64,000 nt of DNA, taken from positions 736,001 to 800,000 of the forward strand of contig CAVYSW010000003.1 in the NCBI GenBank assembly GCA_963771275.1, written 5' to 3'. Positions 17,689-38,927 of the stretch are shown here, one piece after another. The translations under genes and the position numbers were made by a program. The stretch comes from an uncultured Gemmatimonadales bacterium (GTDB taxonomy: Bacteria; Gemmatimonadota; Gemmatimonadetes; Gemmatimonadales; GWC2-71-9). Within the stretch, counting starts at the first letter, position 1; every line of letters begins with the position of its first letter. A model generated the notes under the pieces. It did no database searches. It was not told the origin of the DNA and saw only the letters and a program-made list of their open reading frames with translations.

Positions 17689-18089
17689 TCACCGGCCGCG
17701 AATCGGCACGAGGGTGCGGCATCCGTACGCATCCGTCGCCGCCACAAGGGACACGCTCACACCCGCCGCCGCCGTGTCGTTGACCGGGAAGACTCGGCAC
17801 GTCTGGATCGGATACAAGGGCCCTCGCCATTCGGTACCGGTGAGCACCAGCAGCCCACCCGACCCGTCGGGGCGGGCATCGCGCACCACCGGATCGGAGC
17901 TGTCCGGCATCAGACCGGCGAGCGTGACGCGCGGGAACACCTCGCCGGTATCGCTGAACCACTGGAGCAGCGGGCGGCCGGGCCAGTCAAAGGGATCGCC
18001 CGGGGTAAGCACCAGCACGGCGTCCCGCCGAGGATCGAACCGGAAAATGCGCTCAAGTCTTCATGAACTACGGATGAAGTCCTACTCAT
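17689..18089 (-). CDS. Hypothetical protein, possibly frameshifted near 18055
   Basis: ATG at 18089 overlaps the upstream stop (MSRTSSVVHEDL); the longer coding-looking part (17689-18018) is in another frame. Confidence 0.3.
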
Positions 18090-19513: not shown

Positions 19514-20820
19514 TTACCGTGACCCCCGCAGGAGTGCAGTCGGCAATGGCGGTATCATCGTGGCGAGGAACACCGGGATCCCCAAAGTGTCCGGGACCAC
19601 GAACCACGCGATGGAATCGCGAACGATGTCGGGCAGGCGGGCGTGGGGCACGCTCAAGGAGCCGCGATACCCCGTGCGGGCGTGATACAGATATCGGCGA
19701 TCGCACTGTCCCCTCCCCAGCGCAACGCCCAGGCAGTCGAATCCGACCCCAGCACGACATCGATGTACCGAGGCATGTACGTGGCCCACTTGCCCTCGAA
19801 CAGTTGGCGCTGGGACACCCCGAGAAACGGCAGTTTCTCGTCCGGGTCCAGGGTATGTCGCCGCAACTCGCGCTCGCGTTCTGCGCGGTCGACCTTCCTC
19901 GGCGCGAGCTTGACGGCAAAAGACGAGTAGAGTGCAGCCGACTCACCGAAGAACCACACTCCATATCGGTCGTAGGAGATGGCGACCAGGAGCCCGCCGT
20001 TCCCATCCCAAGTTCTGCCGTGACTGTTGAGGTAGGGGCGCTGTGCCGGGTACCCCCTCATGTCCAGTCCCGCGAACTGTACCCAGCTGTTCCGTAGAGC
20101 CAGAACGGTCGTCCAGGTGCTAGAGTCATCCGGGACCACGCCTTCGACCGACAGCATGGTGCGGACATGGGGATCAGATGAGTTGACGTCCCCCTTCCCG
20201 CTCCGGCTCGCGAGCAATCTGTCGTACGCGCGCGCTAGATGCACGTCGTAGGTAGCGACAAGCGGTGTCCTATAGGTCTGGAGCGTCGCTAGGTACTTGC
20301 CGTTTCGAGCGTACCACTGGATTCCACGACTATCGGCTAGCGCGAAGCCCTCGGGGAATGCGGCCAGGCGATTCCTCGCAGTTCCCCTCATCGCAAGACC
20401 GACGAAGTTCAACTCACCGGGACCAGGACCCTCTCGACCGAACGTGAGCCGGGTGACGCCCAGCGTATCCATTACGATCACCCGGCTGAGCATCATGTCG
20501 AGAACCGCCAGCAATTCCTCCTCTGGATGCCAGTCGATCCCGCCGATGAGGCTGAGAGGCTCGGATGACCTGACGTGCCAACGAATGCGCAATGGCGCTG
20601 CCAAAGGCACGACATGCTCACCATCCTGCGCCAGCAGGCTCCGCTCGCACATCACCTGCTCATCGGCTGATCGAGGGTCGGTTACTCGCTGGGCGCGCCG
20701 CCCCTCCGCTTCGCTCCTGCAACCAGCCAGCGAGACGCCGAGGAGGGTGCATAGGGCCAGAAGCAACACGGCCCCATGTCCGATGGTTGCGCACGATCCG
20801 GCACATCGGGAGCTTGTCAC
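19514..20820 (-). CDS. Divergent 6-bladed beta-propeller lipoprotein, paralogue 3, frameshifted near 19690
   Basis: LAGC lipobox; FGREGPGPGEL; the C-terminal YHARTGYRGSL...DTLGIP lies in the 19514-19789 frame; visibly more A/T-rich than the flanks. Confidence 0.6.
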
Positions 20821-21009
20821 TAGCTCACGCTCCCAGCGTGCATCGGCGACGACGGGTCGATACGGCGCAGCCCCGACATAGTTCAAGGTGTTCTTGGTGC
20901 CGAACGACCATCACTATTGATCGATCCTTCGACAGTTGTCCCACGTCGAGCAGCCGAGTTGGAGGTGATCTGCCCATCGACAAGGGGGCGAAGTCGCCGC
21001 GTAGAGAAA

Positions 21010-24200: not shown

Positions 24201-24473
24201 CGCGCGGCCTGAACCCCGGACTTCGCTCGAGACGGACGAGATCTCGTCCACGCCTCGCACTTGCTGCACTGCGGCCTCGAGCGGCGCCGTGACGAACGCT
24301 TCCATCGTCTCGGGCGACGCCCGGCTCCAGTCGGCGGTCAGCGAAAGCTGGGGGAGCTCGGTGTTGGGCAACAGCTCGATGGGGATGCCGCGCCACGCCG
24401 CTACCCCCAGGAGGGCGACGGCGAAGTACGCCATCGAAACGGCGACGGGCCGGCGGATCGCGAGCCGGATCAC
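21252..24473 (-). CDS. RND efflux permease (AcrB/AcrD/AcrF family), subunit 2
   Basis: 1073 aa; IRRPVAV start, LIVDNAIVVLENI, FESLRQP, RVRPILMTS. Confidence 0.93.
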   Translation of the reverse strand: MIRLAIRRPVAVSMAYFAVALLGVAAWRGIPIELLPNTELPQLSLTADWSRASPETMEAFVTAPLEAAVQQVRGVDEISSVSSEVRGSGRAQITVKFARGTDMDFARLELSERLAAIEEDLPEGVIGPTITPYVPEEFRQQQRPFLRYTLTGPYTLEALRAYLDEQVTPEVLQVDGVAGIDAYGGRERVLEIVLDEDKVNALGLLPRVIWQRIMQLEYVTDAGVVEVDGIQRTLAIRQRTDSPDEVRRAPLLTNRGRIVRVSDVATVHDTYEEPQSLYRIDGMPAVAFTIHKEVGVNTVAVADRVKGRMAELSTTHPAGVRVLLDADESDAIKTQLQDLRVRAIISAAVVFVILLAFLRSFRSAAIVFATVAFSILITLNLIYFGGYSLNVLTLMGLAMGFGLIVDNAIVVLENIYRKWQTGQRGAGTATGVVGAAEEGAKEVVLAVLASTLTTVIVFIPFVYLQGELRAYYIPLAIVVGMSLLASLFVAFTFIPALAAKALGASAGRRTGGGTIPAASVPAAGGPPARPIYVRVYSTMIRFTLRWPWVTILLALAGLGGSYYVFNKYVTRGVLWRSWFGQDTYISIQINLPRGEELERTDELARFFEQKLAQTPEVERYVTQVAPQYAFIRVTFPDSLENTQIPVAIKEQMVAYSNLFGGAEVRVYGYGPSFYGGGASPPNYSIKILGYNYETVRDIAEDLGQRLKRFSRIRDVDVNSAGGWYTSDKASEFVLAIDRQRLGLHGLTAEDVVYQVASAVQGTVRRGYVRVAGDELRFDVKLANNENMDIHELPELLLQTPDGQGVRLGDVATVGDREVLSRIERENQQYQRYVSYEFRGPTKLGDRVRDAVVAATQLPEGYTIEGEQEWRWSTEEAKQLYGVLAISLVLVFMVTAALFESLRQPLCVLLTVPMALIGVFLIFYFTDASFTREAVIGVIMMGGIVVNNAILLVDHINLLRRSYGLPLREATIRGTIERVRPILMTSFTTIFGLLPLVFFSDYADSNIWNALGLSLIGGLSSSTLLVLTVTPAIYSLLERGPERERVAAGVVAGAAGAAEAAGAADAAGAAGAPA

Positions 24474-24500
24474 CGACGGCCGCTCCTGCCGCTCCTGCCG

Positions 24501-25757
24501 CTACTGCCGCCGCAATGCATACAGCCTCACATGCTCGACATCGAGCTCGTCGCGCCAGGTCCCGATGACGTAGTCACGGCCGATCTCCCGGACCGACAGG
24601 CCGGGCGGCGTCTCGACGGGGCCGAGCGCCAGCCCGTCCGGTCCGAACACGACCCAGTGGCGCCGCTCGTCACCCGGCCGGGCGACACCGCGCACCCAGA
24701 GGTCCCCCAGCGGGTCCGTCTTGAGGTCGTCGAACGCGGGGAACGTGCTGGGGAACGGAATGTCCTGGTACAGCCGCTCGGTGCTTTGGCGGGAGCCGGC
24801 ATCCGCACGCGCGAGCCGGTCCGCCTTGTGCCGCGCGATGTCGCCGCCGGTGACGGCGACCGGGGTCCACGCCAGGCGGATGATCTCCTCCGGCACGCCA
24901 CTCGCCGCGTACCGGGTGATCTCGTAGCGTGCGCTGTGTCCCGCGTAGAACCGGTGGCCCGCGATCACCACCAAGGTGTTCGTGCCGAACGGCAGGCTGC
25001 TGGCCATGGCGGAGTTGGTCCGACTCACGACGTACCACTCGGGTCCCGGGAACCGGCCAATCGAATCGCGCAGCGCGCCGGTCGAGTCGAACACGAGGAG
25101 CGGCATCGAGTCGCGCACGACCCGGGTCCCTTCGCCGCTTGGTCGAAACACGAAGCCGCGGTTGCACAGCCACGAGCCATCGGCAAAACGGCCAATGAGA
25201 AACGGCATCCCGGCCGGGAACTCCAGGGTGAAGGACCGGACGAACCGCCCCTCGGCGTCGAAGAGGGACACACGGCGGACGCTCCAGTCGTACGCGGCTA
25301 CCGTGTCGCCCGAGAGCGCGAGCACGCTTCCCAGTTGTTCGAACTCGCCCGGCCCGCCGCCCTTTCGACCGGCGGTCGTGAGATGCTCGCCCGTTGCGTC
25401 GAAGAACCGCAGCTCCTGGGAGCCGCCGTTCGCCACCACGATCCGGCCATCCGACAGGCGCACCGCGCCCCCGACCTGCGACAGCTGGTATGCCTCGTCG
25501 CCCTCGAGCACGCCGATGTCCACCCTCGGCTCGGCCTCCACGGTCCAGAGCGGCGGCGCGTTCGGGGCGAGCGCCGGATTCTCTACAATGCGAATCCCCG
25601 CCGAGTCCCGGATGACTGCCGCGGCCCCGCCCGCCTCCCCACCACAGCCGGATGCGAGAGAACAGAGAAGAGACGAGACGAGCAGGGCAGCGCTCACTCG
25701 CCGGTTCACTCGCTCCGTCTCTGCGCCACCTGCCGCTCCTGCGGTTGCGCTCATCAC
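24501..25757 (-). CDS. 6-bladed beta-propeller lipoprotein, paralogue 4, inside the RND operon
   Basis: LASGC lipobox; [33 protein letters not shown]. Confidence 0.82.
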   Translation of the reverse strand: MMSATAGAAGGAETERVNRRVSAALLVSSLLCSLASGCGGEAGGAAAVIRDSAGIRIVENPALAPNAPPLWTVEAEPRVDIGVLEGDEAYQLSQVGGAVRLSDGRIVVANGGSQELRFFDATGEHLTTAGRKGGGPGEFEQLGSVLALSGDTVAAYDWSVRRVSLFDAEGRFVRSFTLEFPAGMPFLIGRFADGSWLCNRGFVFRPSGEGTRVVRDSMPLLVFDSTGALRDSIGRFPGPEWYVVSRTNSAMASSLPFGTNTLVVIAGHRFYAGHSARYEITRYAASGVPEEIIRLAWTPVAVTGGDIARHKADRLARADAGSRQSTERLYQDIPFPSTFPAFDDLKTDPLGDLWVRGVARPGDERRHWVVFGPDGLALGPVETPPGLSVREIGRDYVIGTWRDELDVEHVRLYALRRQ

Positions 25758-28700
25758 GCACCCTCCGTCTTCGGCGCCATCCCCACGAGCCGGCGCAGTT
25801 TCTCCCGTCCCTGCTCGATCACCTCGTACGCCACCGGCACGACGATCAACGTCAGCGCGGTGGAGCTGCTGAGCCCACCGATCACGGCGAGCGCGAGCGG
25901 GGCGCGGAGATCGGCGCCGCGGCCGATGCCGAGCGCCATGGGCAGCAGGCCGAGCACCGTGGTGATCGTCGTCATCAGGATCGGACGCAGGCGCTGGCCC
26001 GCCGCCTCCTCGATCGCCGGCCGCAACGCGAGCCCCTCCGCGCGCCGGCGATTGATGTAGTCCACCATCACGATCGCGTTGTTCACGACGATGCCGACCA
26101 GGATCACGATGCCGATCAGGCTCATGGTGTTGAGCCCCCCCCCGCCGATCAGCAGCGCGGCCGAGGCGCCGACCGTGACCAGGGGCACGGACAGCATGAT
26201 GGTGAACGGGTGCACGAACGACTCGAACTGGGCTGCGAGGATCATGTAGACGAGCAGCAGCGCCATGCCGAACGCGAACGCGAGATCCCGGAAGCTCCGC
26301 GCGCGCTCCTCGCTGGCGCCCCCGATCTCGTAGCGCACGCCGTGCGGCGCCTGCTCGCCAGCCAGCGCCCGGCGGATATCGGTCACCGCCTGGTCCAGCC
26401 CGCCGTGCGCGACGTCCGCGAACACCTCCACGACGCGGCCCTGATCGCGGCGGCGCACCTCGGCGGGCCCCAGCACCTCATGGGTCACCACCAGCTCGCG
26501 CAGTGGCACGCCGTTGATCGACAGCGTCTGGAGCGTCTCCAGCGAGCGCCGCTCGCTCTCGGGCAGGCGGACCAGCACGGGCACCTTCTCGTCGAAATCC
26601 ACGTACTGGGTCGCGACCGCGCCGCGCATGTACTGCTCCACCGTCTGCGCGATGAGCGCCGGCTCGATCCCGTAGGCGGCCGCCTTGTCACGTGCGATCT
26701 CTACCCGGATCTCGGGCTGGCCTTCTTCGGCGCGGAGCCGCACGTTGCGCAGCGTCGACACACCCTGGAGCCGCCGCTCCACCTGGCGGGCGTAGCCCCA
26801 GATCGCGTCGAGATCCTCCCCGCGCACCCGCACGGAGATGTCCGCCTCCTCGCCGCCCAGCAGGCGGCCCAGCGCGGTCGCGGTCCCGGTTTCCACCGTG
26901 ATCGTCCCCGGCGGGAACTCGGCGAGGCTGGATGCAAGCCGGTCGAGCACGGGTGCCGTCTTGGCGCCTGCGGCGAGCGTCACCTCGATGCGCGCCGTGT
27001 TGAGCCCGCTCTCCTCTTCCTCCACTCCGGCCACGGCGCTCTGGCGGCCGACGCGGGTGAACACGGTCGCCACGTCCGGGTCGCCCCGCGCCGCCTGCTC
27101 GAGCCGGGTCGCGGCCGTGGTGGTCTCCTCGATCGGCGTCCCGCGCGCCAGCTCCAGCGCGATGGTGAACTCGCCCTGGTCCACCTTGGGGAGCACGGCC
27201 CGATCGAGCCGGAGCCCCAGCGCGAGCCCTACCAGCAGCAGCACGCCGGCGGCCGCCATCACGCGGCCGGGGACGCGCAGCGCGCCCGCAATCACCCCCG
27301 CGTACCACGCGGTGAACCGCGCGTAGTGGCGGTCGAACCACTGGAAGAGCGGGCTCGTGACGACGCGGTACACGGTGGGCACCCACCCGAACAGCGCGCC
27401 CGTCACCGCCCGCAGCACGCGCACCGGCAGCGTGGCGGGCCGCCGCTGGTCGCCCGCGGCCGACCAGCGCGCCGCCATCGCCGGCAGCGCGGTCACCGCC
27501 ACCAGGAGGCTCGCGAGCAGCGCGAACGTGACGGCGAGCGACAGGTCGCGGAACAGCTCGCCGGCCACGCCCTCGACGTAGATGATCGGTCCGAACACCG
27601 CGATCGTCGTGAGCGTCGACGCGGTGATCGCGTTGAGGACTTCATCCGTCCCACGGGCCGCGGCGTCCGGCTGCGACAGCCCCTTGCCGCGCAGGCGGAA
27701 GATGTTCTCCAGCACGACGATCGAGTTGTCCACCAGCATGCCCACGCCGAGCGCGAGCCCGCCCAGGCTCATGATGTTGAGCGAGACCTTGGCCAGGTCC
27801 ATCAGGGCGAACGTGGCGACCACCGAGACCGGAATCGAGAGCGAGATCGCCACCGGATAGCGGGCGTCGTGCAGGAACAGAAACAGCACGAGGAACGCGA
27901 GCAGCCCTCCGAAGATGAGCGACGAAACGACGTTGCCGATCGCCTCGCTGATGAACCCGGCCTGCGCGGTGGCGACGTCGAGGTGGGTGTCGGGGTACTG
28001 GGCCCGCACCTGGCGCAGCACCTTCTCGACCTCCTGGGTCACCCGCACGGTGTTGGCCCCGGCCTCCTTGAACAGCAGCAGGCCGACCGACTCCTGTCCG
28101 TTGTAGCGCGCCACCGACTCGCGCTCCTTGAAGCCGTCGTCCACGGCGGCGACGTCCTTGAGCAACACCAGCCCGCCGGCGCCGGTGCGTCGCTGTCCGA
28201 GCGGCACGGCGCCGATCTCGTCGACCGACTGGAACTCCCCCAGGGTGCGGAGCGCGTAGCGATAGCGGCCCCGCCGGATCGTGCCCCCCGGCGCGCTCTG
28301 GTTGGCGGCGTCGAGCGCCCGCACCACGTCGTCCACCGTGAAGCCGTAGGTGTCGAGCAGCCGGGGATTCACCTCGACGTGGATCTCGCGCTCCAGGCCG
28401 CCGGCCAGCGCCGCCTCGGCAATGCCGTCGATCTGCTCGAGCCGCCGCTTGAAGACGTTCTCCGCGAGATCCTTGAGCGCGGCCAGGTCCGTCGTGCCGG
28501 ACACTGAGAGCGCCATGATCGGATCGGCGGTGGGATCGGTGCGCAGCACGACGGGGCGGGTCGCGAGCTCGGGCAGCCCGTCGCGGATGTTGTCCAGCTG
28601 CTCGCGCACGTTGAGCGCCGCGAAGTCCATGTCGGTGCCCCACGTAAAGCGAATCGTGACCAGCGACACGCCCTCGCGCGACACGCTCTCGACGCGCTCG

Positions 28701-28930
28701 ACGCCCGGCACCCGGCCCGCCACCTGCTCGATCCGCTCCGTGACGAACCGCTCGACCTCCGCCGGCCCCACGTCCGGATAGCGGGTGTAGACGACGAGCC
28801 GCGGGTAGGCGATGGAGGGAAGCAGGTCGATCGGCAGCCGCACGTAAGACAGCACGCCAAGAAAGCCGACCGCGGCGACCAGCATCGCCACGGCCACCGG
28901 CCGGGCGACGGAGATGCGCGCGACGCTCAC
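25754..28930 (-). CDS. RND efflux permease (AcrB/AcrD/AcrF family), subunit 1
   Basis: 1058 aa; VARPVAV, MLVDNSIVVLENI, QFESFVHP, RLRPILMTT. Confidence 0.93.
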   Translation of the reverse strand: MSVARISVARPVAVAMLVAAVGFLGVLSYVRLPIDLLPSIAYPRLVVYTRYPDVGPAEVERFVTERIEQVAGRVPGVERVESVSREGVSLVTIRFTWGTDMDFAALNVREQLDNIRDGLPELATRPVVLRTDPTADPIMALSVSGTTDLAALKDLAENVFKRRLEQIDGIAEAALAGGLEREIHVEVNPRLLDTYGFTVDDVVRALDAANQSAPGGTIRRGRYRYALRTLGEFQSVDEIGAVPLGQRRTGAGGLVLLKDVAAVDDGFKERESVARYNGQESVGLLLFKEAGANTVRVTQEVEKVLRQVRAQYPDTHLDVATAQAGFISEAIGNVVSSLIFGGLLAFLVLFLFLHDARYPVAISLSIPVSVVATFALMDLAKVSLNIMSLGGLALGVGMLVDNSIVVLENIFRLRGKGLSQPDAAARGTDEVLNAITASTLTTIAVFGPIIYVEGVAGELFRDLSLAVTFALLASLLVAVTALPAMAARWSAAGDQRRPATLPVRVLRAVTGALFGWVPTVYRVVTSPLFQWFDRHYARFTAWYAGVIAGALRVPGRVMAAAGVLLLVGLALGLRLDRAVLPKVDQGEFTIALELARGTPIEETTTAATRLEQAARGDPDVATVFTRVGRQSAVAGVEEEESGLNTARIEVTLAAGAKTAPVLDRLASSLAEFPPGTITVETGTATALGRLLGGEEADISVRVRGEDLDAIWGYARQVERRLQGVSTLRNVRLRAEEGQPEIRVEIARDKAAAYGIEPALIAQTVEQYMRGAVATQYVDFDEKVPVLVRLPESERRSLETLQTLSINGVPLRELVVTHEVLGPAEVRRRDQGRVVEVFADVAHGGLDQAVTDIRRALAGEQAPHGVRYEIGGASEERARSFRDLAFAFGMALLLVYMILAAQFESFVHPFTIMLSVPLVTVGASAALLIGGGGLNTMSLIGIVILVGIVVNNAIVMVDYINRRRAEGLALRPAIEEAAGQRLRPILMTTITTVLGLLPMALGIGRGADLRAPLALAVIGGLSSSTALTLIVVPVAYEVIEQGREKLRRLVGMAPKTEGA

Positions 28931-30297
28931 GGCCGCACGGGCCGGCCGGCCCGCTCCTCCAGCGCCACGACGGCTTCCGCGAACGCGTAGCGCGCGTTGG
29001 TGAGCTGGCGTTCCTCCTGCGAAGCGCGGTCGATCAGGATCTGGAGGTTGGCGAACGAGATCGCGCCGATGGCGTAGCGCTCGCGCGCCAGCCGCAACCG
29101 CTCGGAGCTGTAGCCCGAGGCGCGCTGCGCCAGGCTCAAGGCCTGGTAGGCGTTCTGCACGTCGATCACCGCCGAGCGGATGTCCTGCTCCAGCCCCAGC
29201 TGCCCAGCGCGGAGCGACTCATCCGCGTTCCGCGCGTCGGCGTCGGCCGCGGCCACCTGGGCCGAGGTCTGAAACCCTGTGAACAGGGGGAGGTTCACGC
29301 TCAGGCTGAAGCTGAAGGACCGGTCCCGCGGGTTGAGCTTGAAGAACGCGCTGTAGGCGTCGTCGTTCGTGAAGCGCTGGAACGACGCGCCGAGCTGGAC
29401 CGTCGGCCAGCGCCCGCCGCTGGCAACGGACGCCCGGAGGTGCGCCGCGTCGGCCGACGCCGCGAGGCGCTGAATCTGGGGGTGGTCCGTGAGCGCGAGC
29501 GCGACGAGCGAATCCGGGCGCAGCGCCGCCGGGTCCCACGCGGGCGGCAGCTCCCCCACGACCGCGAACTCGATCGGCTCCGTAAGGCCCAGCTGCTCAC
29601 GCAGCGAGACGACCGCCTTCTGGGCGTCGCCTCGCGTCCGGGCGAGCTGCAGCTCCGCGTTGGCGACGTCCGCCTCGGCGCCGAGCACATCTTCCCGGTT
29701 GGCTGCCGCCACGCGAAACAGGCGCTCGGTATTGTCACGCTGTTCCTGGGACGATGCGAGCAGGCGCTCTTCCAGCACGATCAGCTGGCTGGTACGCAGG
29801 GCTTCGTAGAAGCGGCGCGTCGTCTCTGCATCCACCTGGCTCCGCGTCGCCCAGCGGGTCGCGTCAGCCGCATCCTGGTTGGCGCGGGCGGCCCGCAGCG
29901 TCTTGAAGTTGCGCAGGCCGTCGAACAGAGTGAGCCCAGCCGAGAGGCTCTGGCTGGCGCTGCTACCCTTGTAGCTGATTACCGTGTCCCGGCCGAGGGG
30001 TTGGCCGAAGATGTCCAGCGCGGTCACACGCCGCGAGTCGTTGCCGGAAAATGACATCCGCGCGTCGAGCGACGGCATGAACGCGCCCCAGCCGGCGCGC
30101 ACCTGCGCCCCTTGGGCCCGGTAGGTGTTCACGGCCTGCAGGTACTGCGGGTTCCGCTCCCGCGCGATCGCGATCGCGTCGTCCAGGGTGAGGCGCGCCG
30201 GAACGGCCGTGCGCGCCTGGGCCGCCACTGGCGGCGCGAACCCTGCCGCCCCTGCCGCCCCTGCCACCACTGCCACCACTGCCGCCGCGATCCTCAT
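28927..30297 (-). CDS. TolC-family outer membrane factor
   Basis: Signal peptide; LTLDDAIAIARERNP, LTLFDG, LPLFTG, ERYAIG repeats; ATGA overlap with the MFP stop. Confidence 0.9.
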   Translation of the reverse strand: MRIAAAVVAVVAGAAGAAGFAPPVAAQARTAVPARLTLDDAIAIARERNPQYLQAVNTYRAQGAQVRAGWGAFMPSLDARMSFSGNDSRRVTALDIFGQPLGRDTVISYKGSSASQSLSAGLTLFDGLRNFKTLRAARANQDAADATRWATRSQVDAETTRRFYEALRTSQLIVLEERLLASSQEQRDNTERLFRVAAANREDVLGAEADVANAELQLARTRGDAQKAVVSLREQLGLTEPIEFAVVGELPPAWDPAALRPDSLVALALTDHPQIQRLAASADAAHLRASVASGGRWPTVQLGASFQRFTNDDAYSAFFKLNPRDRSFSFSLSVNLPLFTGFQTSAQVAAADADARNADESLRAGQLGLEQDIRSAVIDVQNAYQALSLAQRASGYSSERLRLARERYAIGAISFANLQILIDRASQEERQLTNARYAFAEAVVALEERAGRPVRP

Positions 30298-31484
30298 CTC
30301 GGCCTCCCGCCGGCGGCCTGGACGTTCTCGACCAGCCGGACCCGGGCATCGTGGATCAGCGTGTAGTGTCCGTCGGTGAGCACGATCTCGCCGGGCTGGA
30401 CCATCTCGGTCTCCGGGTTCGCGACGATCTCGACCAGCGAGTCGTTGGCGAGCCCGGTCGTCACGTAGCGCCACTTGGCGAGTCCGGTGGTCGCCCCCTC
30501 ACCGTCGCCCTGGAACACGAACAACATCGTCCGCCGGTCGCGCTCCAACACCGCGGCGCGCGGCACGAGAATTCGGTTGGGGAACTTCCGGGCTTCGAGC
30601 GCCACCCGCGCGTACATGCCCGGCAGGATGCGGCTCTCCGAGTTGGGAATGGTGACGGTCACGTTCGCGGTGCGGGTGTCCTGCGCCACCACGGGGTTGA
30701 TGGTCTCGATGCGCCCGGCGAACTCCTCGCCGGGGAACGCGGCAAACGAGACGAACGCACGCCGTCCGGCCGCGAGCAATCCGACTTCGCTCTCAAGCAC
30801 CTGCACCACGACCCGAATGGGGTTCAGATCCACCACGGTCGCCAGCTCGTCCCCCACCCGCACCGTCTGGCCCGGCATCACCTTGACCGACGCGGCGCGG
30901 CCCGCAAACGGCGCCGTCACCCGGGTGCGCTGCAGCTGGAGGTCGGCCTCGCGCACGCTGACTTCGGCTTCGGCGAGGCCGCTCTTGGCCCGCGCCACCC
31001 GCGCCCGCTCGACGCGCACCGCCGAGTCGGCGATCTGGTCGTCGAACAAGGTGAGCTCACGGAACGAGGCCTGCGTCCGGGCGAGGTTCGCCTCCGCCCG
31101 CGCGAGCCCCAGCGCGTACTCCGTCGTGTCGATCACGACGAGCAGCTGCCCCGCCACCACCCGGTCGTTGTCGCGCACCGTCACGTCCATCACCCGGCCG
31201 GCGACCTGGGCCAGGATGCGCGAGTCGCGCTGAGCGGCCGCCTGGGCCGCCGCTGACACGGAGATGACCAGCGTGTCCCGCTCGACCTTGGCCCCCTCCA
31301 CCGGGATCGCGACATCCGTCGAGAAGGTCTCGGTCGCCGAGACATCCGGACGGCGGGACGTGCTGTCGGTGGTGGAGCCGTCGCCGGACGCCTTGCCGGC
31401 GAACAGCCAGAAGTAGGCGCCCGTGCCGGCGGCGAGCACGACGAGGCCGCCGGCGGCGGAGAGCAGGAGTCGAGTACGTGTCAT
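30294..31484 (-). CDS. RND periplasmic adaptor (membrane fusion protein)
   Basis: N-terminal TM; lipoyl halves VAGRV...GQLLV and VTAPFAG...GQTV; ILPGMYA. Confidence 0.92.
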   Translation of the reverse strand: MTRTRLLLSAAGGLVVLAAGTGAYFWLFAGKASGDGSTTDSTSRRPDVSATETFSTDVAIPVEGAKVERDTLVISVSAAAQAAAQRDSRILAQVAGRVMDVTVRDNDRVVAGQLLVVIDTTEYALGLARAEANLARTQASFRELTLFDDQIADSAVRVERARVARAKSGLAEAEVSVREADLQLQRTRVTAPFAGRAASVKVMPGQTVRVGDELATVVDLNPIRVVVQVLESEVGLLAAGRRAFVSFAAFPGEEFAGRIETINPVVAQDTRTANVTVTIPNSESRILPGMYARVALEARKFPNRILVPRAAVLERDRRTMLFVFQGDGEGATTGLAKWRYVTTGLANDSLVEIVANPETEMVQPGEIVLTDGHYTLIHDARVRLVENVQAAGGRPR

Positions 31485-31630
31485 GGTCAACGCCGCGTGG
31501 GAGCCCAGGTCGGAGCAACGGGAAAGCAACGAATCGATGTAATGTGCCCGGCCGCCCCGCGAATGTCACGCCTGCGGAGCGGCTGGGCTACAGATGCACG
31601 ATGTGCCCTAACGGGTTGCAGGGCGGCGCG

Positions 31631-32692
31631 TCACCGCGCCGAGCGGCCTGGCTCGAGCCGGAAGACCCTGATCCCGTCCATGGTGAGCCGGTAGAACCGC
31701 CCGCGGTGAATCACGCCGCGGCCCCCAGCCAGTTGGGGGTCGGTCCCGGACGCCCAACGCAGCGACCGACTGTGATAGGTCCTGGCGTCCACCAACAGGC
31801 CGAACACGCCGTCTATCGCGGGAAAGAGCAGGAGCAAGCGGTCGTCGTCCGTCGCGGAGAACGACGTGATCTTCGGGAGCGCGTTTCGTCCGGAGCCGCC
31901 AAAATCGCGCTCGACCAGCGCGGCGCGCTTAGTCAGTCCCTCGAGCACCGCGTCCGGCAGGCGCCGGGCCGTGAGCCGTCGGCCGTCGGGGCTGAACTTC
32001 ACGAGAGCCCCGAGGTGAGGGTCGTAGACGTGCACCAGTCCGCCATCCGTCACGGCTAGGTCGACCTCCCCGCCGGGCAGGCGCGGGGCCGACAGGACAG
32101 CGTCCGGGTACAGGTCCCAAGGGCGCTCGGCGAACGGTCGCGCGATCCCGTCACGATCGATGGCCAGCAGGTAGTTGCGCTGGTCGTAGGCGCTGACGTA
32201 GAGCGTCCCGTCCGGTCCGTACGCGACCTGGGTGAAGCCGTTGGGCAGCAGGACGTTGCGGCGGAACCTGCCTTCCGCCCCGAACACCGAGATCCTCCCG
32301 TTGTTCACCTCCGTGACGGCGTACTCACCTTGCCAGACCGCCAGCCCGTAGATGCCACGAAGCTCTCCGGGGCCGGAGCCCGGCCGGCCGATGAACTGGA
32401 TCGGGTGAAACGCCGAGTCGAAGACCACGAGCCGCGAGTTCGCAACCTCCAGTACGAGCATTCGATCGTCCTGGAACCGCACATCTATCGCGCGCGCGAA
32501 TCCCCCGCCGTCAGGTTCGGGGGAGATCGGCCGCTCAAGCGCGACCTCGTGGGCAATGAGCGGCCTCGGGTCTGAATCGGCCTCAGGAATCGTGACAGCG
32601 GATGTACCACGCGAGCAGGCAACGAGGAGCGCCGCCGCGGAGACGCGGGCCGCGATTCGGAGACTGGATGGCAGCGAATGACGACGTACCAT
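31631..32692 (-). CDS. 6-bladed beta-propeller lipoprotein, paralogue 5, directly downstream of the small secreted protein
   Basis: RBS GAGAGGA; LLVAC lipobox; IGRPGSGPGEL. Confidence 0.78.
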   Translation of the reverse strand: MVRRHSLPSSLRIAARVSAAALLVACSRGTSAVTIPEADSDPRPLIAHEVALERPISPEPDGGGFARAIDVRFQDDRMLVLEVANSRLVVFDSAFHPIQFIGRPGSGPGELRGIYGLAVWQGEYAVTEVNNGRISVFGAEGRFRRNVLLPNGFTQVAYGPDGTLYVSAYDQRNYLLAIDRDGIARPFAERPWDLYPDAVLSAPRLPGGEVDLAVTDGGLVHVYDPHLGALVKFSPDGRRLTARRLPDAVLEGLTKRAALVERDFGGSGRNALPKITSFSATDDDRLLLLFPAIDGVFGLLVDARTYHSRSLRWASGTDPQLAGGRGVIHRGRFYRLTMDGIRVFRLEPGRSAR

Positions 32693-32722
32693 GTGATCCT
32701 CTCGACACGATTGGTTGGCAGC

Positions 32723-32760
32723 GGGAGCGGGCCCGCCGCGCGACTCGGCGGACCCGTCCC
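32723..32760 (-). terminator. Strong GC stem-loop without U-tract (partial terminator or mRNA stabiliser)
   Basis: On the + strand GGGAGCGGGCCCGCCG / loop CGCGACT / CGGCGGACCCGTCCC, about 20 nt after the stop of 32782-33108. Confidence 0.6.
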
Positions 32761-32781
32761 GGTTTCAGCATCTGTGGACCT

Positions 32782-33108
32782 TCAACGGATGACTCTGCCG
32801 GTGCGGCAGTCCACTTTGACGACCTCCTGGGTCACCTGGTTCTGGTAGTAGCCCACGTGGAACTGCTCCGAGGTGGTGCCTGTCACGCTGGCGTTGATGC
32901 CGCACGAGCCGCCTCCCGCCCCGAGCGTCCCGCTGGTCGTCTCGGTCACCAGCGACTGGGATTGTAGCTGGTACGGTTGGCCGGTCTGCCCGCCGACCGC
33001 GTCTGCCGGGCAGTCGCTCGGGTCCGCCAGGAGCGGGCCACCGCTCAGTGCGAAGAGTGCAATCAGAAACGTGCACGTCCTGATGAAGGTTCCGGTCTTC
33101 TTCAGCAT
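32782..33108 (-). CDS. Small Sec-secreted Ser/Thr/Gly-rich Cys-containing protein (candidate exported peptide/toxin)
   Basis: Strong RBS GGAGGG before ATG; signal peptide MLKK...FLIALFALSGGPLLA|D; 80-aa mature part with 3 Cys; lacks the Arg/Pro bias of GC shadow ORFs. Confidence 0.8.
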   Translation of the reverse strand: MLKKTGTFIRTCTFLIALFALSGGPLLADPSDCPADAVGGQTGQPYQLQSQSLVTETTSGTLGAGGGSCGINASVTGTTSEQFHVGYYQNQVTQEVVKVDCRTGRVIR

Positions 33109-33300
33109 CTATCCCTCCACGCGCCTTGAGCCGGCGCGAACAAGTGGTTCGAACCCGGCCGCGATCGTCGGGCCGGGGAGATACGATCGGGCCATCCGCC
33201 CGCACGGCCATAGGCGAAACGCGGCGGCCGGTGTCGTTTTCACGCCAAGCGAGCGGGCCTGCGACCTTCGGGGCGTCGGGTGCATCTTTCACCGGTGGGT

Positions 33301-33357
33301 TGGCCAATAGCCGATAGCCGACAGCGGTTTCGGTTTCACTCTTCACTTTTCACTCCA
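33301..33357 (+). repeat. Heptamer arrays (TRGCCGA)n plus (TTTCACT)n upstream of paralogue 6
   Basis: tggccaa tagccga tagccga cagcggt ... ttcact cttcact tttcact. Confidence 0.65.
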
Positions 33358-33365
33358 TTCCCACA

Positions 33366-34499
33366 ATGCGCTCACTCCTGACCACTCTCCTCGTCGCGGC
33401 GCTCAGTGCGGACGCCGCCGCGCAGACCCGACCGATCCCGCTCGGCAAGCCGGATGCAACGTTCCCGGAGCCGGTGAGCTCGCCCGTGGGATTCCGCGCC
33501 CTGAGCGACGGCCGCCTGCTCGTGGCCGACAACATCGAGTCGACCGTGTCGCTGCTCGACTTCCGGACCGGCCAGGCGACGGCCGTCGGCCGGCAGGGCG
33601 AAGGCCCAGGGGAGTTCGGCATGCCGGGGGCGCTCTATGCCGGCGCCGCCGACACCACGTACATGATGGACATGGGGAACCGGCGCCTGCTGGTGATCAC
33701 CGCGGACGGCACGATTAGCAGCAGCACGGTTCCCCTGTTCCATCAATCCGGCTGGCCGATCCTCCCCCGCGGCGTCGACGCCAAGGGACGGATCTATTTC
33801 GATCTGGGCGGCATCGCCATGCCGGGACTGAACGAGATGGTCACGTCCGGCCGGGCCCCGCTGATCCGCTGGGATCGCGCCGCCGGCCAAATGGACACCC
33901 TCGCCTACGTCCAGTTCCCGCCGCAGCCGGCGGCGGGGCCGGGACAGGTCCGCGTCTCGATCGGCGGTGGCGCCTACCAGCCGCGCGACGACTGGGCGGT
34001 GCAGCCGGACGGCCGGGTCGGGCTCGCGCGGGCGACGGCGTACCATGTCGAGTGGTACGGCACCGGAGCACCGGTGATCGGACCGCACGTCGACTACACG
34101 CCCGTCAAGATCGGCAGCGCGGAGAAGAACGCCTGGGCGGATCAGGCGGCGGCGCGCGGCCTCGCGGTCGAGATCGTGAACGGCCAGCGGCGCACGACTC
34201 GGCTCCCCCGCCCGAACGTCGATCAGCAGCAATGGCCCGAGGTGATGCCCCCGTTCACGGGCTCGCGAGCCGTCCTCGCCGCGCCGAGCGGGGAGCTGTG
34301 GGTCCGGCGGGCACAGCCCGCGGGCAGCAAGACGACCGTCTACGACGTGTTCGACGCCGCCGGCCGCCTCGCGCGGCAAGCCTCGCTGGACGGGGACCGC
34401 ACCGTGTTGGGCTTTGGGCCGGGAGCGGTATACGTGGCGCGGAGCGACGAAGACGATCTGATGTGGATCGAGCGGTATCGTTGGCCGGTTAGCCGTTAG
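33366..34499 (+). CDS. Secreted 6-bladed beta-propeller protein, paralogue 6
   Basis: Signal peptide ...AAAQ; VGRQGEGPGEF; YDVFDAAG; DEDDLMWIERYR. Confidence 0.8.
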   Translation: MRSLLTTLLVAALSADAAAQTRPIPLGKPDATFPEPVSSPVGFRALSDGRLLVADNIESTVSLLDFRTGQATAVGRQGEGPGEFGMPGALYAGAADTTYMMDMGNRRLLVITADGTISSSTVPLFHQSGWPILPRGVDAKGRIYFDLGGIAMPGLNEMVTSGRAPLIRWDRAAGQMDTLAYVQFPPQPAAGPGQVRVSIGGGAYQPRDDWAVQPDGRVGLARATAYHVEWYGTGAPVIGPHVDYTPVKIGSAEKNAWADQAAARGLAVEIVNGQRRTTRLPRPNVDQQQWPEVMPPFTGSRAVLAAPSGELWVRRAQPAGSKTTVYDVFDAAGRLARQASLDGDRTVLGFGPGAVYVARSDEDDLMWIERYRWPVSR

Positions 34500-34558: not shown

Positions 34559-35713
34559 ATGCGCACGATCCTGACCCCCCTCCTCCTGGCTGCGGCCGCT
34601 TCGTCGGTCTCGGCCCAGTCCGCCCCCACCGTCACGCTCTCGCGGAGCGACGCCCGGTTCGCCGAGCCGTTCAGCAGCCTCGTGGGAATCCGCGAGCTCG
34701 CCGACGGTCGCCTCGTCGTCTCGGACCGACTCGAGCAATCGGTGTCCGTGCTTGATTTCCGCACGGGCACGATGACGCCGCTCGGGCGCCAGGGCCAGGG
34801 TCCCGGCGAGTACACGATGCCGGGGGCGCTGTTCGCCTTTCCGGGCGACTCCACCATGCTGCTCGACCTGGGCAACATGCGCGGGATCATCGTGACCCCG
34901 GGCGGGACTATGGGGAAGACTATCGATCTCCAGAGCCCCGAGGGCCTGCCACTCATCCCGCGGGCCGCGGATGGCCGAGGTCGCCTGTACGCGCAGCCGG
35001 CGCTCATGCTGCGGGGGAACACGACGACCTCCGGGCCGGACTCGACGCCGCTGCTTCGCCTCACGCCGGCGACCAAGATGATCGACACGGTGGCGTGGCT
35101 CGCCAACTCGGGCATCGCGGGCGGTGGCGGCGCTTTTTCGTCTCGCAGCGGTGGAAGTGGAGGCGGCGGCCCCCGGAACATCAGCTTGCGCGCGCGCCCC
35201 TACTCGCCGGACGACGGCTGGGCCGTGACGCCCGACGGACGGATCGCCGTCGCGCGCGCGACCGGCTACCACGTCGAGTGGCTGGCGCCCGGCGGCCGGC
35301 GCACTTCAGGTCCGGCGCTCCCCTATGAGCCCGTGAAGATCGGCAAGGCGGAGAAGGAACAATGGGCCGACCAGCGGGCGAAGGGCAGCGTCATGATCAT
35401 GCGCACGCCCCAGGGCTCGCAGACGATGCGGGCGCCCAAGCCCAACATCGACGAGCAGGACTGGCCGGAGACCAAGCCGCCGTTCGAGGCGCAGGGCGTG
35501 CTCGCCACGCCCGAAGGCGAGATCTGGATCCGCGTCTCGCAGCCCGCGAATGCCAAAGCGGTGGTGTTCGACGTCGTGGACGCGTCAGGCCGGCTCGTGA
35601 AGCACGTCAGGTTGCCGGACGGACGGCGTCTCGTGGGCTTCGGCAAGGGCACGCTCTACGCCGTCCAGACGGACGCCGACGATCTGGAGTGGCTGGAGCG
35701 GTATCGCCGATAG
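34559..35713 (+). CDS. Secreted 6-bladed beta-propeller protein, paralogue 7 (tandem duplicate of paralogue 6)
   Basis: Signal peptide ...VSAQ; LGRQGQGPGEY; DADDLEWLERYR; colinear similarity to 33366-34499. Confidence 0.8.
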   Translation: MRTILTPLLLAAAASSVSAQSAPTVTLSRSDARFAEPFSSLVGIRELADGRLVVSDRLEQSVSVLDFRTGTMTPLGRQGQGPGEYTMPGALFAFPGDSTMLLDLGNMRGIIVTPGGTMGKTIDLQSPEGLPLIPRAADGRGRLYAQPALMLRGNTTTSGPDSTPLLRLTPATKMIDTVAWLANSGIAGGGGAFSSRSGGSGGGGPRNISLRARPYSPDDGWAVTPDGRIAVARATGYHVEWLAPGGRRTSGPALPYEPVKIGKAEKEQWADQRAKGSVMIMRTPQGSQTMRAPKPNIDEQDWPETKPPFEAQGVLATPEGEIWIRVSQPANAKAVVFDVVDASGRLVKHVRLPDGRRLVGFGKGTLYAVQTDADDLEWLERYRR

Positions 35714-36240: not shown

Positions 36241-37878
36241 TCAGAACCGCCAGGCCCCGCTCACCGTCACGAACCGGTACTGGTAGTTCCCCACGTCGGA
36301 CGCGAACAGCGCCATGCCGAGGGTGGAGTAGCCACCCACGACCGCGATCTCGCGTTCCGGCCCCACCGCATAGCGCAGCTCACCTTGAAGGCGCACGGCG
36401 GCACCAAAGCTGCCGCCGCCGATCTTCTGGAGTCCCGGCGCGACTTCCACCGCCGGGATGATCATATGGAACGCCCGCTGCCAGCGCGCAGGGGCCTCGA
36501 TCAGCACGTAGAGATCGGGATCGAAGTACCCGTCGCTCAGGTCCTTCTGGAACCCGAAGACCCGCGCCGCGGCGCCCACGGTGAAGTCGCGCACGATCCG
36601 CCGGCTCACGGCCGCCGCCCCGGCCGTCCGGTCGTTCGCCTCGCTGCCCGCGAACCGCGCCAGCGAGAAGGCGCCGTTCAAGGTCCACCCTCCCGGCGGC
36701 GCCGCGCGGAGGTCGAGAGCGAGCTGCCGGACCGTGACGCGATTCTGCACCAGCGGCGCCGTGCCGTCGATCGGGTCGTGCGTAAACGAGACGGTACCGA
36801 TGACCGGCTCGCGGGCGGGGCTCGACACCCGAAGCATGTAGCGCGTCACGGCGTCGGCCCCCGCGACGTCCGACGCGCTGGCACCCAGCCCCGCGCTGAA
36901 CCCCCACCCGGGCTCCGCCTGGGTCCAGACCTCCAGCAATCCCCCGTAGGCCTGGCGCGACAGCGGGGCGGCGCCGCCCAGCGACAACCAGCGGTAGTAG
37001 CCGCCGGCGCGGAGCTCCACGCGCGGGCCCGGTCGCCACGCCGAGCGCGCCGCCAGCGTGCTGATCCCGTTGCCGTCGTTGTCCGACTCGTAGCCGAAGC
37101 TCGACGCCGTGCGCGGGCGCAGGGCGAGCTCGGCCAGCCGGCGCTCGGTGCGCAGGTCCGGGTCGTTGGGCGCCGCCGGCGCCGCGCGACGGATGACGGC
37201 GAGCGCCGCCGCGTCGCGCCCCTCCCAGCGGAGCGTCTGCGCCAGCCCGATCGCCGCGGTGGTGAACGTCGAGTCGCGCGCCAGCAGCAGGCGCCAGCGA
37301 CGCTCGGCGTCCTTGAGGTGCCCCTGCCAGCCCCGCACGCGCGCCAGGCCCGCGAGCGCGTCCACATCCGTCGTGTCCTCCGCGAGGAGGCTGTCGTACA
37401 GCGCCGTCGCCTCACGGTACCGGCCCGACCAGGAGAGAAACAGCGCGCGTGCTTCCAGCGCCGGGGCGTACCGGGGCGCCCGCGCCAGCACCTCGTCCAG
37501 ATCGCGGAGCGCCTCGGGCAGGTGGCCCTGCCACGCGCGCACGCGCGCCCGGCCCACCGCCGCCTCCAGGTTGCCGGGCGCGATCCTGAGCAACCGATCG
37601 AACAGCCGCAGGCTCTGCTCGTACCGCCCCGCCCACCCCGCCATCAGGCCAAGGCGCTCCAGGGCCACCATGTCACCCGAGTCGGTGGCAAGACGCCGGC
37701 TGTAGAGCGTCCACGCGGACTGGGTGTCGCCGCGGTCCCAGGCGCGATCCGCGTCGTCCTGCGCGCGCGCCGGCCGCCCGGGTAGCAGCAGCGCGAGCAG
37801 GATGAGGCCGGGCCACACGATGTACCGAGCGCGGCGCCGCGCCGCGCCGGTCGGACGTGGTGTTGCGCCGCCCCTCAC
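36241..37878 (-). CDS. TPR-repeat protein with C-terminal outer-membrane beta-barrel
   Basis: Signal ...PARA|Q; repeated LARVRGWQG/LSWSGRY-type TPRs; alternating beta-strands, GYFDP motif, terminal WRF; GTGA overlap with the upstream gene. Confidence 0.7.
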   Translation of the reverse strand: MRGGATPRPTGAARRRARYIVWPGLILLALLLPGRPARAQDDADRAWDRGDTQSAWTLYSRRLATDSGDMVALERLGLMAGWAGRYEQSLRLFDRLLRIAPGNLEAAVGRARVRAWQGHLPEALRDLDEVLARAPRYAPALEARALFLSWSGRYREATALYDSLLAEDTTDVDALAGLARVRGWQGHLKDAERRWRLLLARDSTFTTAAIGLAQTLRWEGRDAAALAVIRRAAPAAPNDPDLRTERRLAELALRPRTASSFGYESDNDGNGISTLAARSAWRPGPRVELRAGGYYRWLSLGGAAPLSRQAYGGLLEVWTQAEPGWGFSAGLGASASDVAGADAVTRYMLRVSSPAREPVIGTVSFTHDPIDGTAPLVQNRVTVRQLALDLRAAPPGGWTLNGAFSLARFAGSEANDRTAGAAAVSRRIVRDFTVGAAARVFGFQKDLSDGYFDPDLYVLIEAPARWQRAFHMIIPAVEVAPGLQKIGGGSFGAAVRLQGELRYAVGPEREIAVVGGYSTLGMALFASDVGNYQYRFVTVSGAWRF

Positions 37879-38927
37879 TGCGGGATCTCCACCACGATTT
37901 TCCCCATGTGGTCGCCACCCGCGAGGCGCTCGAACGCGCCGATCGCGTCCGTCAACGAGAAGACCGAATCCACCAGCGGCCGTAGCGCGCCCCTGCCGAG
38001 CAGTACCACAATCGCGCGGTACTCCGCCGCGTTGCCCATGGTGGACCCGAGCAGATTCCACTGATACCAGAACATCCGCCGCAGATCGACCGCCACCGCG
38101 GGGCCCGTCGTGGCGCCGCAAGTGACGAGTCGCCCCCGGCGCGCGAGCATGCGAAGCGACTGCTCCCACGTCGCCGCGCCGACGCTGTCCACGATCACGT
38201 CCACACCGCGCCGTTCGGTGAGGCGCCGCACCTCTCCCGGCACGTCCACCCTGGCGTGGTTCAGCGTCACGTCGGCGCCGAGCGCGCGCGCCCGCTCGAG
38301 CTTGGCATCGCTCGACGAGGTCACGATCGCGAAGGCGCCCATCAGCTTGGCGATCTGGAGCGCCGCGCCGGAGACGCCGCCGCCGATCCCCCAGATGAAA
38401 ACGGTCTCGCCGGGCAAGAGCTTGGCCCGGGTCACGAGCATGCGCCAGGCGGTGAGGGTGACGAGCGAGTAGGCCGCGGCGTCGACGAACGTGACGGGGC
38501 CGGGCGCCGTGCGCTGCGGGATCGGCAGCACGTTCTGCTCGGGGACGACGATGTAGTCGGCGAGCGTGCCGTTGAGGTGCTCGCCGAGCAGCCGGTACTC
38601 CGGGCACAGCGAATGCTCGCCGGCGAGGCACGTGTCGCAGCGATAACAGGGAATCCCGGGATTGAGCATCACCGCGTCGCCGGGCGCGAGCCGGGTGACG
38701 TCCCGGCCGACCGCCTCCACCACGCCCGCCCCGTCGCCGCCCAGAATGTGCGGGAATTCGAGCGCGAGGCCCGGCAGCCCCCGGACGGTCCAGAGATCGA
38801 GGTGATTGAGCGCGGCCGCCTTGAGCCGCACGAGCACGTCGCCACCCCGCTGGATCGCCGGAGCGGGTCGGTCGGCGATCGCGAGCTGGGAGAAATCGCC
38901 GTGCCCGCGGAGCACCAGCGCTTTCAT
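37875..38927 (-). CDS. Zinc-binding MDR-family dehydrogenase / quinone oxidoreductase
   Basis: ALNHLD, PHILGGDGAG, structural Zn CYRCDTC...C, GIGGGVS, GKIVV. Confidence 0.9.
   Translation of the reverse strand: MKALVLRGHGDFSQLAIADRPAPAIQRGGDVLVRLKAAALNHLDLWTVRGLPGLALEFPHILGGDGAGVVEAVGRDVTRLAPGDAVMLNPGIPCYRCDTCLAGEHSLCPEYRLLGEHLNGTLADYIVVPEQNVLPIPQRTAPGPVTFVDAAAYSLVTLTAWRMLVTRAKLLPGETVFIWGIGGGVSGAALQIAKLMGAFAIVTSSSDAKLERARALGADVTLNHARVDVPGEVRRLTERRGVDVIVDSVGAATWEQSLRMLARRGRLVTCGATTGPAVAVDLRRMFWYQWNLLGSTMGNAAEYRAIVVLLGRGALRPLVDSVFSLTDAIGAFERLAGGDHMGKIVVEIPQ

Follow-up and report, generated by a model that had tools for sequence, protein, structure and literature searches.

A conserved gene for a small, predicted exported protein paired with a propeller lipoprotein gene in Gemmatimonadota

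We investigated a small gene on the minus strand of a 64,000-nt stretch of DNA from an uncultured Gemmatimonadales bacterium (contig CAVYSW010000003.1, positions 736,001 to 800,000; hereafter, the window). The product of this gene, here called the mini-protein, carries a predicted signal peptide, and the adjoining downstream gene, propA, encodes a predicted beta-propeller lipoprotein. Together, the two genes constitute a self-contained two-gene module. A preliminary description of the same DNA had read the mini-protein as a tiny oligomeric beta-barrel toxin or bacteriocin, or alternatively as a fibre or amyloid subunit. The features on which the argument rests are the following, with the basis of each given in brackets.

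32782..33108, minus strand: mini-protein gene, 108 amino acids (aa), stop codon included (list of open reading frames (ORFs), sequence, homologues, ratio of nonsynonymous to synonymous substitution rates (dN/dS), GC content at third codon positions (GC3))
33113..33118, minus strand: Shine-Dalgarno-like GGAGGG, 4 nt 5' of the ATG (direct reading of the sequence)
33025..33108, minus strand: predicted Sec-type signal peptide, codons 1-28, with an n-region (K3, K4, R10), an h-region and Ala28 at -1 (sequence, helix 3-21 in the AlphaFold2 (AF2) model, conservation of Ala28, rule-based cleavage)
32839..32976, minus strand: predicted long beta-hairpin, codons 45-90, with strands 45-63 and 74-90 and a Gly-rich tip with Cys69 (AF2 model, comparison of anchor lengths, dN/dS)
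31631..32692, minus strand: propA, predicted six-bladed NHL-type beta-propeller lipoprotein with lipobox LLVAC and Cys26 (Pfam, AF2, Foldseek, lipobox)

A conserved small gene paired with propA

The ORF at 32782..33108 is a real, conserved gene, and its 108-aa translation is identical to the sequence given in the preliminary description. A word-indexed search identified 18 homologues at 56-78% identity, which are about 107-120 aa long except for one fragment of 67 aa, and GGAGG-like motifs are also present 5' of most of the homologous genes. When the search was repeated with a hidden Markov model (HMM) and without length restriction over 1.84 billion representatives, it returned 19 proteins, 15 of them small relatives (81-125 aa). 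Among these matches there was none in which the mini-protein was fused to a propeller; the long proteins P0030, P0031, P0034 and P0036 are repetitive and rich in Thr, Ser and Gly, and we judged their matches to be compositional rather than to reflect fused forms. The close homologues and about 30 more distant members make up a family alignment of 52 sequences, so that the reading frame, whose conservation the preliminary description had made a point of, is kept in the 18 close homologues and across the family as a whole. The median dN/dS of the gene is 0.35 (10 close DNA copies, at a dS of about 1.1, which is near saturation); the genome is rich in GC, and the GC3 of the gene is 0.86.

The gene that immediately follows the mini-protein gene is propA-like at all 38 places that we examined, in Gemmatimonadota genomes and in metagenome contigs with the gene order of the window. 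Among the close loci taken from public contigs, all 12 show this arrangement; the metagenome loci were found with a narrow alignment and are all close relatives. It also holds for each of the 27 loci (26 distinct places in 23 genomes) that were found in a 401-genome sample of the phylum. The gap between the two genes ranges from -28 to +83 bp in 35 of 35 measured loci, and every partner has a lipobox Cys; the spacer in the window is 89 nt long. Across 16 wider regions, the propeller is the only common neighbour. The other surrounding genes are unrelated: two families have gyrB/recF, a third has a sigma-54 activator, and elsewhere there are peptidases and others. Thus, the downstream propeller, which the preliminary description had mentioned as an optional addition to an assay, turned out to be the one invariant feature of the family.

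The distribution of the two genes across the 401 genomes is nested. The mini-protein gene was detected with our first profile in 24 genomes, belonging to 4 of 12 families, and in no genome of the sample does it occur without propA. The propA subfamily is present in 36 genomes, including all 24 with the mini-protein gene. Among the 12 additional propA genomes, five proved, with a richer profile, to have a clear mini-protein gene directly upstream (E 9e-30 to 6e-18); the remaining seven comprise one with degenerate copies and six without a mini-protein gene detected in the stretch examined.

The propA product is predicted to be a bacterial lipoprotein, based on a lipobox that follows a hydrophobic signal stretch and whose Cys26 is present in every one of the 32 aligned partners. 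In Pfam, it matches NHL with 22.8 bits (cut-off 20) and DUF5128 with 22.4 bits, just under the cut-off of 22.9. The AF2 model (predicted local distance difference test, pLDDT, 90.6) has six four-stranded blades, and Foldseek matched it to the NHL domains of TRIM2, Lin41 and Brat at E of about 1e-13, with PDB 4raa also among the matches. Thus, propA is predicted to have the same six-bladed NHL-type fold as PF17170 (DUF5128, '6-bladed beta-propeller') and NHL proteins, such as Bacteroides fragilis BF0058 (4raa) and TRIM2/Lin41/Brat, and, like the DUF5128/NHL paralogues, it carries a GxGPGE-type motif. Its invariant residues, G105, G107-E110 and R133, fall in a stretch that paralogues without a small partner match as well. 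To our knowledge, no function is known for DUF5128.

Within this fold, propA represents its own subfamily, with a predicted lipid anchor. The genome from which the window derives encodes 20 propeller paralogues, of which propA is the only one that matches the subfamily profile over its full length (414 bits, with 65 bits for the next best), and propA alone has a credible gene for an exported Cys-containing mini-protein directly upstream; it is the sole paralogue in this genome that is coupled to this mini-protein.

Some of the loci show additional particularities. In family f4, the pair is directly preceded by a gene for a sigma-54 activator (L051:6408-7646, plus strand; L053:8654-9841, minus strand), and in L053 a gene for a DsbA-like thioredoxin directly follows the propeller (6175-6864, minus strand). 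In a genome from the window's own family (G380:C5:91862-92169; L020/L041), the mini-protein matches as two adjoining pieces, profile positions 9-47 and 46-105, which are located in separate open frames of 51 and 173 aa, next to an intact propeller gene; this split suggests a frameshift or an assembly error.

Predicted anatomy of the mini-protein

The N-terminus of the mini-protein has the organization expected of a Sec signal peptide, with K3, K4 and R10 preceding a hydrophobic stretch at residues 13-27 and with Ala28, just before the presumed mature end, kept in at least 90% of the 52 sequences. Read by rule, these features fit the cleavage proposed in the preliminary description, between PLLA and D, which would release a mature protein of 80 aa. 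Only C33, G86, Y88 and C101 are invariant across the 52 members, with L48 and T55 near-invariant. Of the three cysteines to which attention had been drawn earlier, the near-terminal pair, C33 and C101, is thus universal in the family, whereas the third, C69 at the hairpin tip, is invariant in 21 of 21 members of the close subfamily but is not conserved in distant members.

An AF2 model based on a 19-sequence alignment (mean pLDDT 72; predicted template modelling score, pTM, 0.48) consists of strands 36-38, 45-63, 74-90 and 96-100, following the signal helix 3-21. These strands are predicted to form a small sheet with a long two-stranded ribbon, the Gly-rich tip of which (residues 65-70) is modelled at a pLDDT below 50. 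The monomer prediction therefore yields the long hairpin that the preliminary description had anticipated: for the two strands of about 20 residues around a Gly turn that had been read there, AF2 predicts, with moderate confidence, two strands of about 18 residues and a Gly-rich turn. The alternation of hydrophobic residues (L62/A64 and I71/A73/V75) with Gly, Ser, Thr and Asn, noted at the same time, is present in the sequence, and this apolar alternation is stricter in distant members than in the protein of the window.

The hairpin is the variable part of the protein. The segment between the anchors T55 and G86 spans 19-40 residues in the 52 members (median 29; 19 residues in eight of them), and forms with 19 and 28 residues are both found within one genus. 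The distal hairpin, with a dN/dS of 0.61, is the least constrained part of the protein, compared with 0.23 for the base, within which all the invariant and near-invariant residues of the family lie. Two glutamates on the 'hydrophobic' face of the hairpin, E56 and E81, are conserved in the close subfamily, and the mature protein is, by its sequence, net acidic.

Some members depart markedly from this pattern. In the distant metagenome proteins P0024, P0025 and P0026, poly-Thr strands flank a hydrophobic, Trp-containing tip (for example, ...SLIWGLITL...), and judging from these residues, this hairpin appears to be the most membrane-insertion-like variant in the family. In genome G063, degenerate members are encoded 5' of propA-type genes (L061:351-851, plus strand; L062:1094-1585, minus strand), one of which (L061) has kept both cysteines and the base motifs and has almost lost the hairpin.

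Comparisons with described families and folds yielded no relative of the mini-protein. Pfam gave no match at E <= 1 for the protein of the window, except for a chance match to RRM, and for the 52 members no consistently matched family and no toxin family at E <= 0.05. The mini-protein matched no family in NCBIfam, PADLOC or PHROGs, a profile search of the PDB sequences with the family gave 0 matches at E <= 10, and the ESM Atlas gave no usable match. Likewise, a search of literature listings and the openings of abstracts produced, among the papers listed, no match for the mini-protein family, DUF5128, PF17170 or BF3164. The mini-protein thus appears, from its sequence, to belong to no described family. 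At the level of structure, Foldseek with the AF2 model (pLDDT 72) found nothing in the PDB at E <= 0.001, and no beta-pore-forming toxin, the group with which the preliminary description had proposed a comparison, was among the matches listed.

In an exhaustive comparison of the same model with 48,161 chains using VIA-align, Z did not exceed 5.0; this value, obtained with small Tudor/KOW/SH3-like barrels, is below the best Z of 7-8 that the tool states as noise for models without a true match; no pore former was among the 50 best rows. The nearest shape match to the base of the model is the N-domain of CarD (4l5g_A; Z 5.0, root-mean-square deviation 2.4 A over 51 residues), and domain I of EF-P (6s8z/5wxk), a small barrel with a protruding hairpin, scores Z 4.2-4.5. 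CarD and EF-P are cytoplasmic binders of nucleic acid or the ribosome and, unlike what we propose for the mini-protein, have no disulfides, so that the likeness is one of shape only, at scores below noise.

Genomic neighbourhood in the window

The remaining features of the window that adjoin the pair, or lie in the spacer between its two genes, are the following.

30294..31529, minus strand: membrane-fusion (adaptor) protein of the resistance-nodulation-division (RND) type (Pfam HlyD_D23 3.8e-29; TIGR01730 181.6 bits)
28927..30474, minus strand: TolC-like outer-membrane factor, ORF as listed (Pfam OEP 4.5e-50; TIGR01844 135 bits, below cut-off)
25754..28930, minus strand: RND permease (Pfam ACR_tran 2e-238; no NCBIfam model at cut-off)
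32722..32761, minus strand: predicted GC-rich stem-loop with a 16-bp upper stem in the 89-nt spacer (RNA fold)
33366..34499, plus strand: propB, paralogous propeller with a signal peptide, divergent (weak NHL/DUF5128 matches)
34559..35713, plus strand: propC, second divergent paralogous propeller (Pfam scan, synteny)

In the lineage of the window, an RND efflux operon begins with the pair, whereas in other lineages the pair lies beside unrelated housekeeping genes. The string in the window runs uninterrupted on one strand from the mini-protein gene through propA, the adaptor, the TolC-like factor, an RND permease and a propeller to a second RND permease. The true start of the TolC-like gene is probably further downstream because the listed ORF overlaps the adaptor gene by 181 nt, and the RND permeases match generic multidrug models best, reaching no curated cut-off. 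The RND order is kept in every close locus with enough sequence to show it (seven of the 12) and in L058, a locus from the window's own family; L044 retains the adaptor gene. These two loci are the only ones among the 16 wider regions with RND components nearby; such components are absent from the other 14. On the opposite side, propB is found upstream in eight of the 12 close loci, the other four having less than 420 bp of upstream sequence.

The spacer between the mini-protein gene and propA contains a stem-loop. The segment 32680-32800 (minus strand) is predicted to fold with -52.6 kcal/mol (z -2.33), and 4 of 200 shuffled sequences folded as well. A pattern scan found no T-tract terminator at the stem-loop, and the scan of 31400-33500 for promoters and terminators gave 0 sites of either kind. 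The stem-loop could set the proportion in which the two products are made, either as a partial terminator or as a stabiliser.

Several other genes of the window deserve mention. The two RND permease genes are separated by a DUF5128-type propeller gene (24501-25757, minus strand, within 21252-28930, minus strand), the gene ends touching or overlapping; altogether, the interval 18-36 kb of the window holds five propeller paralogues, and propeller genes are interleaved with efflux genes in this lineage. A 796-aa tetratricopeptide repeat (TPR) protein encoded at 36241-38631 (minus strand) has a C-terminal half that ends in ...GAWRF and homologues with weak BCSC_C and PgaA-like matches, and this half is possibly an outer-membrane barrel; the gene is kept upstream of the cassette in the close loci that reach far enough. 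Upstream of the propeller gene 18082-19419, a 410-aa ORF (19654-20886, minus strand) has no Pfam or NCBIfam match.

A proposed dedicated partner of propA and competing explanations

We used complex prediction to examine the pair, supplying the mature mini-protein and mature propA both as alignments in three runs. The interface score, ipSAE, was 0.43 (0.36, 0.43 and 0.49 in the individual runs), compared with 0.01 for the best of three controls, and the verdict of the tool was 'weak support'; contact agreement was at least 47%, and the pLDDT of the partner at least 67. In the calibration of the tool, 116 of 157 solved complexes reached the mark, as did 2 of 215 mismatches; at scores of up to 0.60, the corresponding numbers are only 18 of the 157 solved complexes and both mismatches. 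We count this weak pass only because the genomic prior, namely, pairing, co-occurrence and specificity, is high.

Taken together with the conserved pairing, the co-occurrence and the specificity for propA, with the predicted export signal and lipobox of the two products and with the stronger constraint on the base of the mini-protein, these findings lead us to give roughly even credence to the following reading: the mini-protein would be a Sec-exported partner of propA, stapled by a C33-C101 disulfide and co-transcribed with the propeller gene, which binds the propeller through its conserved base and leaves its variable ribbon exposed. The disulfide would most likely tie together the short N- and C-terminal strands, closing a small four-stranded sheet, from which the Gly/Ser/Thr-rich two-stranded ribbon would project, with a length and sequence that vary between lineages. 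The two proteins would be made from one transcript, and the soluble mini-protein would bind the propeller lipoprotein and thereby be held at a membrane, with the base as the likely docking part and the ribbon as the free part. In the cell envelope, the mini-protein would then work as the dedicated partner of propA.

Several considerations weigh against this proposal. In the six genomes with a propA-subfamily gene and without a detected mini-protein gene, none was found in the approximately 0.8-1.1 kb of upstream sequence examined; the propeller can therefore occur on its own. Adjacency that is conserved among related genomes is in part a product of inheritance and does not amount to independent observations, and for the same reason we did not use as evidence the mirror-tree correlation between the mini-protein and the propeller (Spearman 0.75), which is expected from shared ancestry alone. 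The length of the hairpin showed no convincing covariation with any of the seven propeller loops tested; the best value (rho -0.56, for a loop of 4-8 residues) is uncorrected and confounded by ancestry and was not counted. The complex score is weak and comes without a reported interface, from runs that differ by seed only and with supplied alignments that lie outside the calibration of the tool. Furthermore, the amphipathic Ser/Thr/Gly pattern would also be expected of a membrane-inserting hairpin, as would the Trp tips of P0024-P0026, and the role of a partner leaves the actual function of the mini-protein unexplained.

One competing explanation is a toxin-immunity pair, in which the hairpin of the mini-protein oligomerises into a small beta-barrel pore and the propeller lipoprotein provides periplasmic immunity or holds the toxin before release. 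Such a pair would account for the order of the genes, toxin first and lipoprotein second, with tight or overlapping junctions, and for the asymmetry of their occurrence, the mini-protein gene always being accompanied by the propeller gene, which for its part can be solitary or tandemly duplicated (two adjoining propA copies in G273, G325 and G392; extra copies in G354, G199, G249 and G063). A patchy spread over 24 of 401 genomes and 4 of 12 families would also be expected, as would the integrase fragments that flank the pair in L044 and the ORFs that immediately precede the lone propellers of L064 and L065 and that look transposase-like, to the eye, in translation. The pair, however, is located stably beside gyrB/recF in two families (L047 and L048, with the same layout in L050 and L055), an arrangement more suggestive of vertical inheritance than of a mobile weapon, and the mini-protein has a Sec signal only, with no linked outer-membrane release system in distant loci. 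We found no similarity to a toxin or immunity family, no pore former stood out in the fold searches, and the 'immunity' protein would be four times the size of the toxin. The hairpin itself speaks on both sides: its amphipathic Ser/Thr/Gly strands, the hydrophobic Trp tips of P0024-P0026 and the variability and faster evolution of its distal part would suit a toxin, but the mature protein is acidic, and in the eight members with 19 residues between the anchors the ribbon would be too short to span a membrane. On this balance, we consider a toxin-immunity pair unlikely. Aerolysin and ETX-MTX2 toxins, with which the mini-protein had been compared, combine a Ser/Thr-rich amphipathic insertion hairpin with receptor-binding and cap domains. 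The mini-protein shares an amphipathic Ser/Thr hairpin with alternating small hydrophobic residues and, in some distant members, an aromatic tip; it differs in having a predicted mature length of only 80 aa, none of these additional domains and no sequence or fold match, in the unconserved hairpin length, in the Glu pair on the apolar face, and in always being coupled to a propeller. The variable, faster-evolving distal hairpin argues against a fixed membrane-spanning stem, on which a family-wide function could hardly depend, and a stand-alone pore is unlikely. We regard it as quite improbable that the 80-residue protomer self-assembles through its hairpin into a membrane beta-barrel that the propeller holds, aims or neutralises, be it as a toxin-immunity system or as an outer-membrane channel; were this the case, the mini-protein would be the smallest beta-barrel pore former known and a minimal model for beta-barrel pore assembly. 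Of the earlier interpretation, then, the structural half holds, that is, a conserved ORF for a predicted exported, Cys-bracketed protein with a long amphipathic Ser/Thr/Gly hairpin, whereas the functional half, an autonomous oligomeric toxin or bacteriocin or a fibre, is unsupported.

The pairing evidence would also be explained if the propeller lipoprotein were an enzyme or chaperone that transiently folds, modifies or hands over the mini-protein as its substrate, without a stable complex. There are NHL enzymes among the fold matches of propA (peptidyl-hydroxyglycine lyase, 3fvz, and virginiamycin B lyase), and the weak fold neighbours nearest to the mini-protein include barrels with an enzymatically modified hairpin tip (domain I of EF-P, with EarP); the tip of the mini-protein hairpin, which would be the natural site of modification, is not conserved, no catalytic motif was identified in propA, and the stretch that contains its invariant residues is also matched by partnerless paralogues. 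The DsbA-like gene that follows the propeller in L053 would fit such a relationship, but a thioredoxin-like gene is near the pair in only this one of 13 distant loci scanned, and none adjoins the copy in the window; altogether, we consider a substrate relationship improbable. The position of the mini-protein gene at the head of the RND string, kept in seven close loci and in L058, with the adaptor kept in L044, together with the extra Cys at the hairpin tip in the close subfamily, raises the possibility of an efflux accessory, either a CusF-like protein that delivers substrate or a channel plug. CusF is a small periplasmic beta-barrel metallochaperone inside RND operons of the cusCFBA type, and the mini-protein resembles it as a small, predicted exported beta-protein within an RND operon in this lineage. 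Unlike CusF, it has no CusF match in Pfam and no conserved Met, His or Trp ligands, and mostly has no RND link, gyrB, recF and peptidases taking the place of RND genes in the majority of wider regions; moreover, the permeases of the window resemble generic multidrug pumps best. We consequently rejected a CusF-like metallochaperone, given the short list of invariant residues and the scarcity of RND genes, and find an RND accessory of any kind highly improbable. A self-assembling fibre or amyloid subunit, suggested by strands rich in Gly, Ser, Thr, Gln and Asn with strict side-chain alternation in some members, such as the 19-residue forms, is barely credible and was likewise rejected: the protein has no internal repeats, there is no curli- or Fap-like gene set nearby, the sequences conserve what is predicted to be a compact, disulfide-closed base instead, and the propeller partner would be left unexplained. 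Finally, light subunits of propeller-type amine dehydrogenases have a Trp pair or Cys-Trp cofactor residues (tryptophan tryptophylquinone or cysteine tryptophylquinone), many disulfides and maturation genes nearby; the mini-protein family has no invariant Trp, only two invariant cysteines and no maturation genes in its neighbourhoods, and we rejected this candidate.

If the mini-protein is indeed the bound partner of propA, a parallel to the arrangement is TolB-Pal, in which a six-bladed propeller of the periplasm and a small lipoprotein of the envelope bind to each other and are encoded by adjacent genes. In both cases, a propeller gene has the gene for a small envelope protein as its neighbour, and the two products form, or are here proposed to form, a complex at a membrane. 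The roles are reversed in the pair described here, with the propeller as the predicted lipoprotein and the small protein predicted to be soluble; we detected no homology to TolB-Pal and no Tol genes nearby.

We did not find the coupling of a mini-protein with propA in the databases and literature searched, and the novelty of these findings accordingly resides in an orphan family and in a module without a known counterpart, rather than in a demonstrated new mechanism. Gemmatimonadota have a greatly enlarged complement of DUF5128-type propeller lipoproteins, and the mini-protein partner could lead to the first function for this expanded family. The genome from which the window derives may contain a second, unrelated pair of this kind, outside the window, where an ORF of 164 aa, lipoprotein-like at its N-terminus and containing several cysteines (G000:C3, approximately 955200-955715, plus strand), stops 15 nt before another propeller lipoprotein gene (C3:955730).

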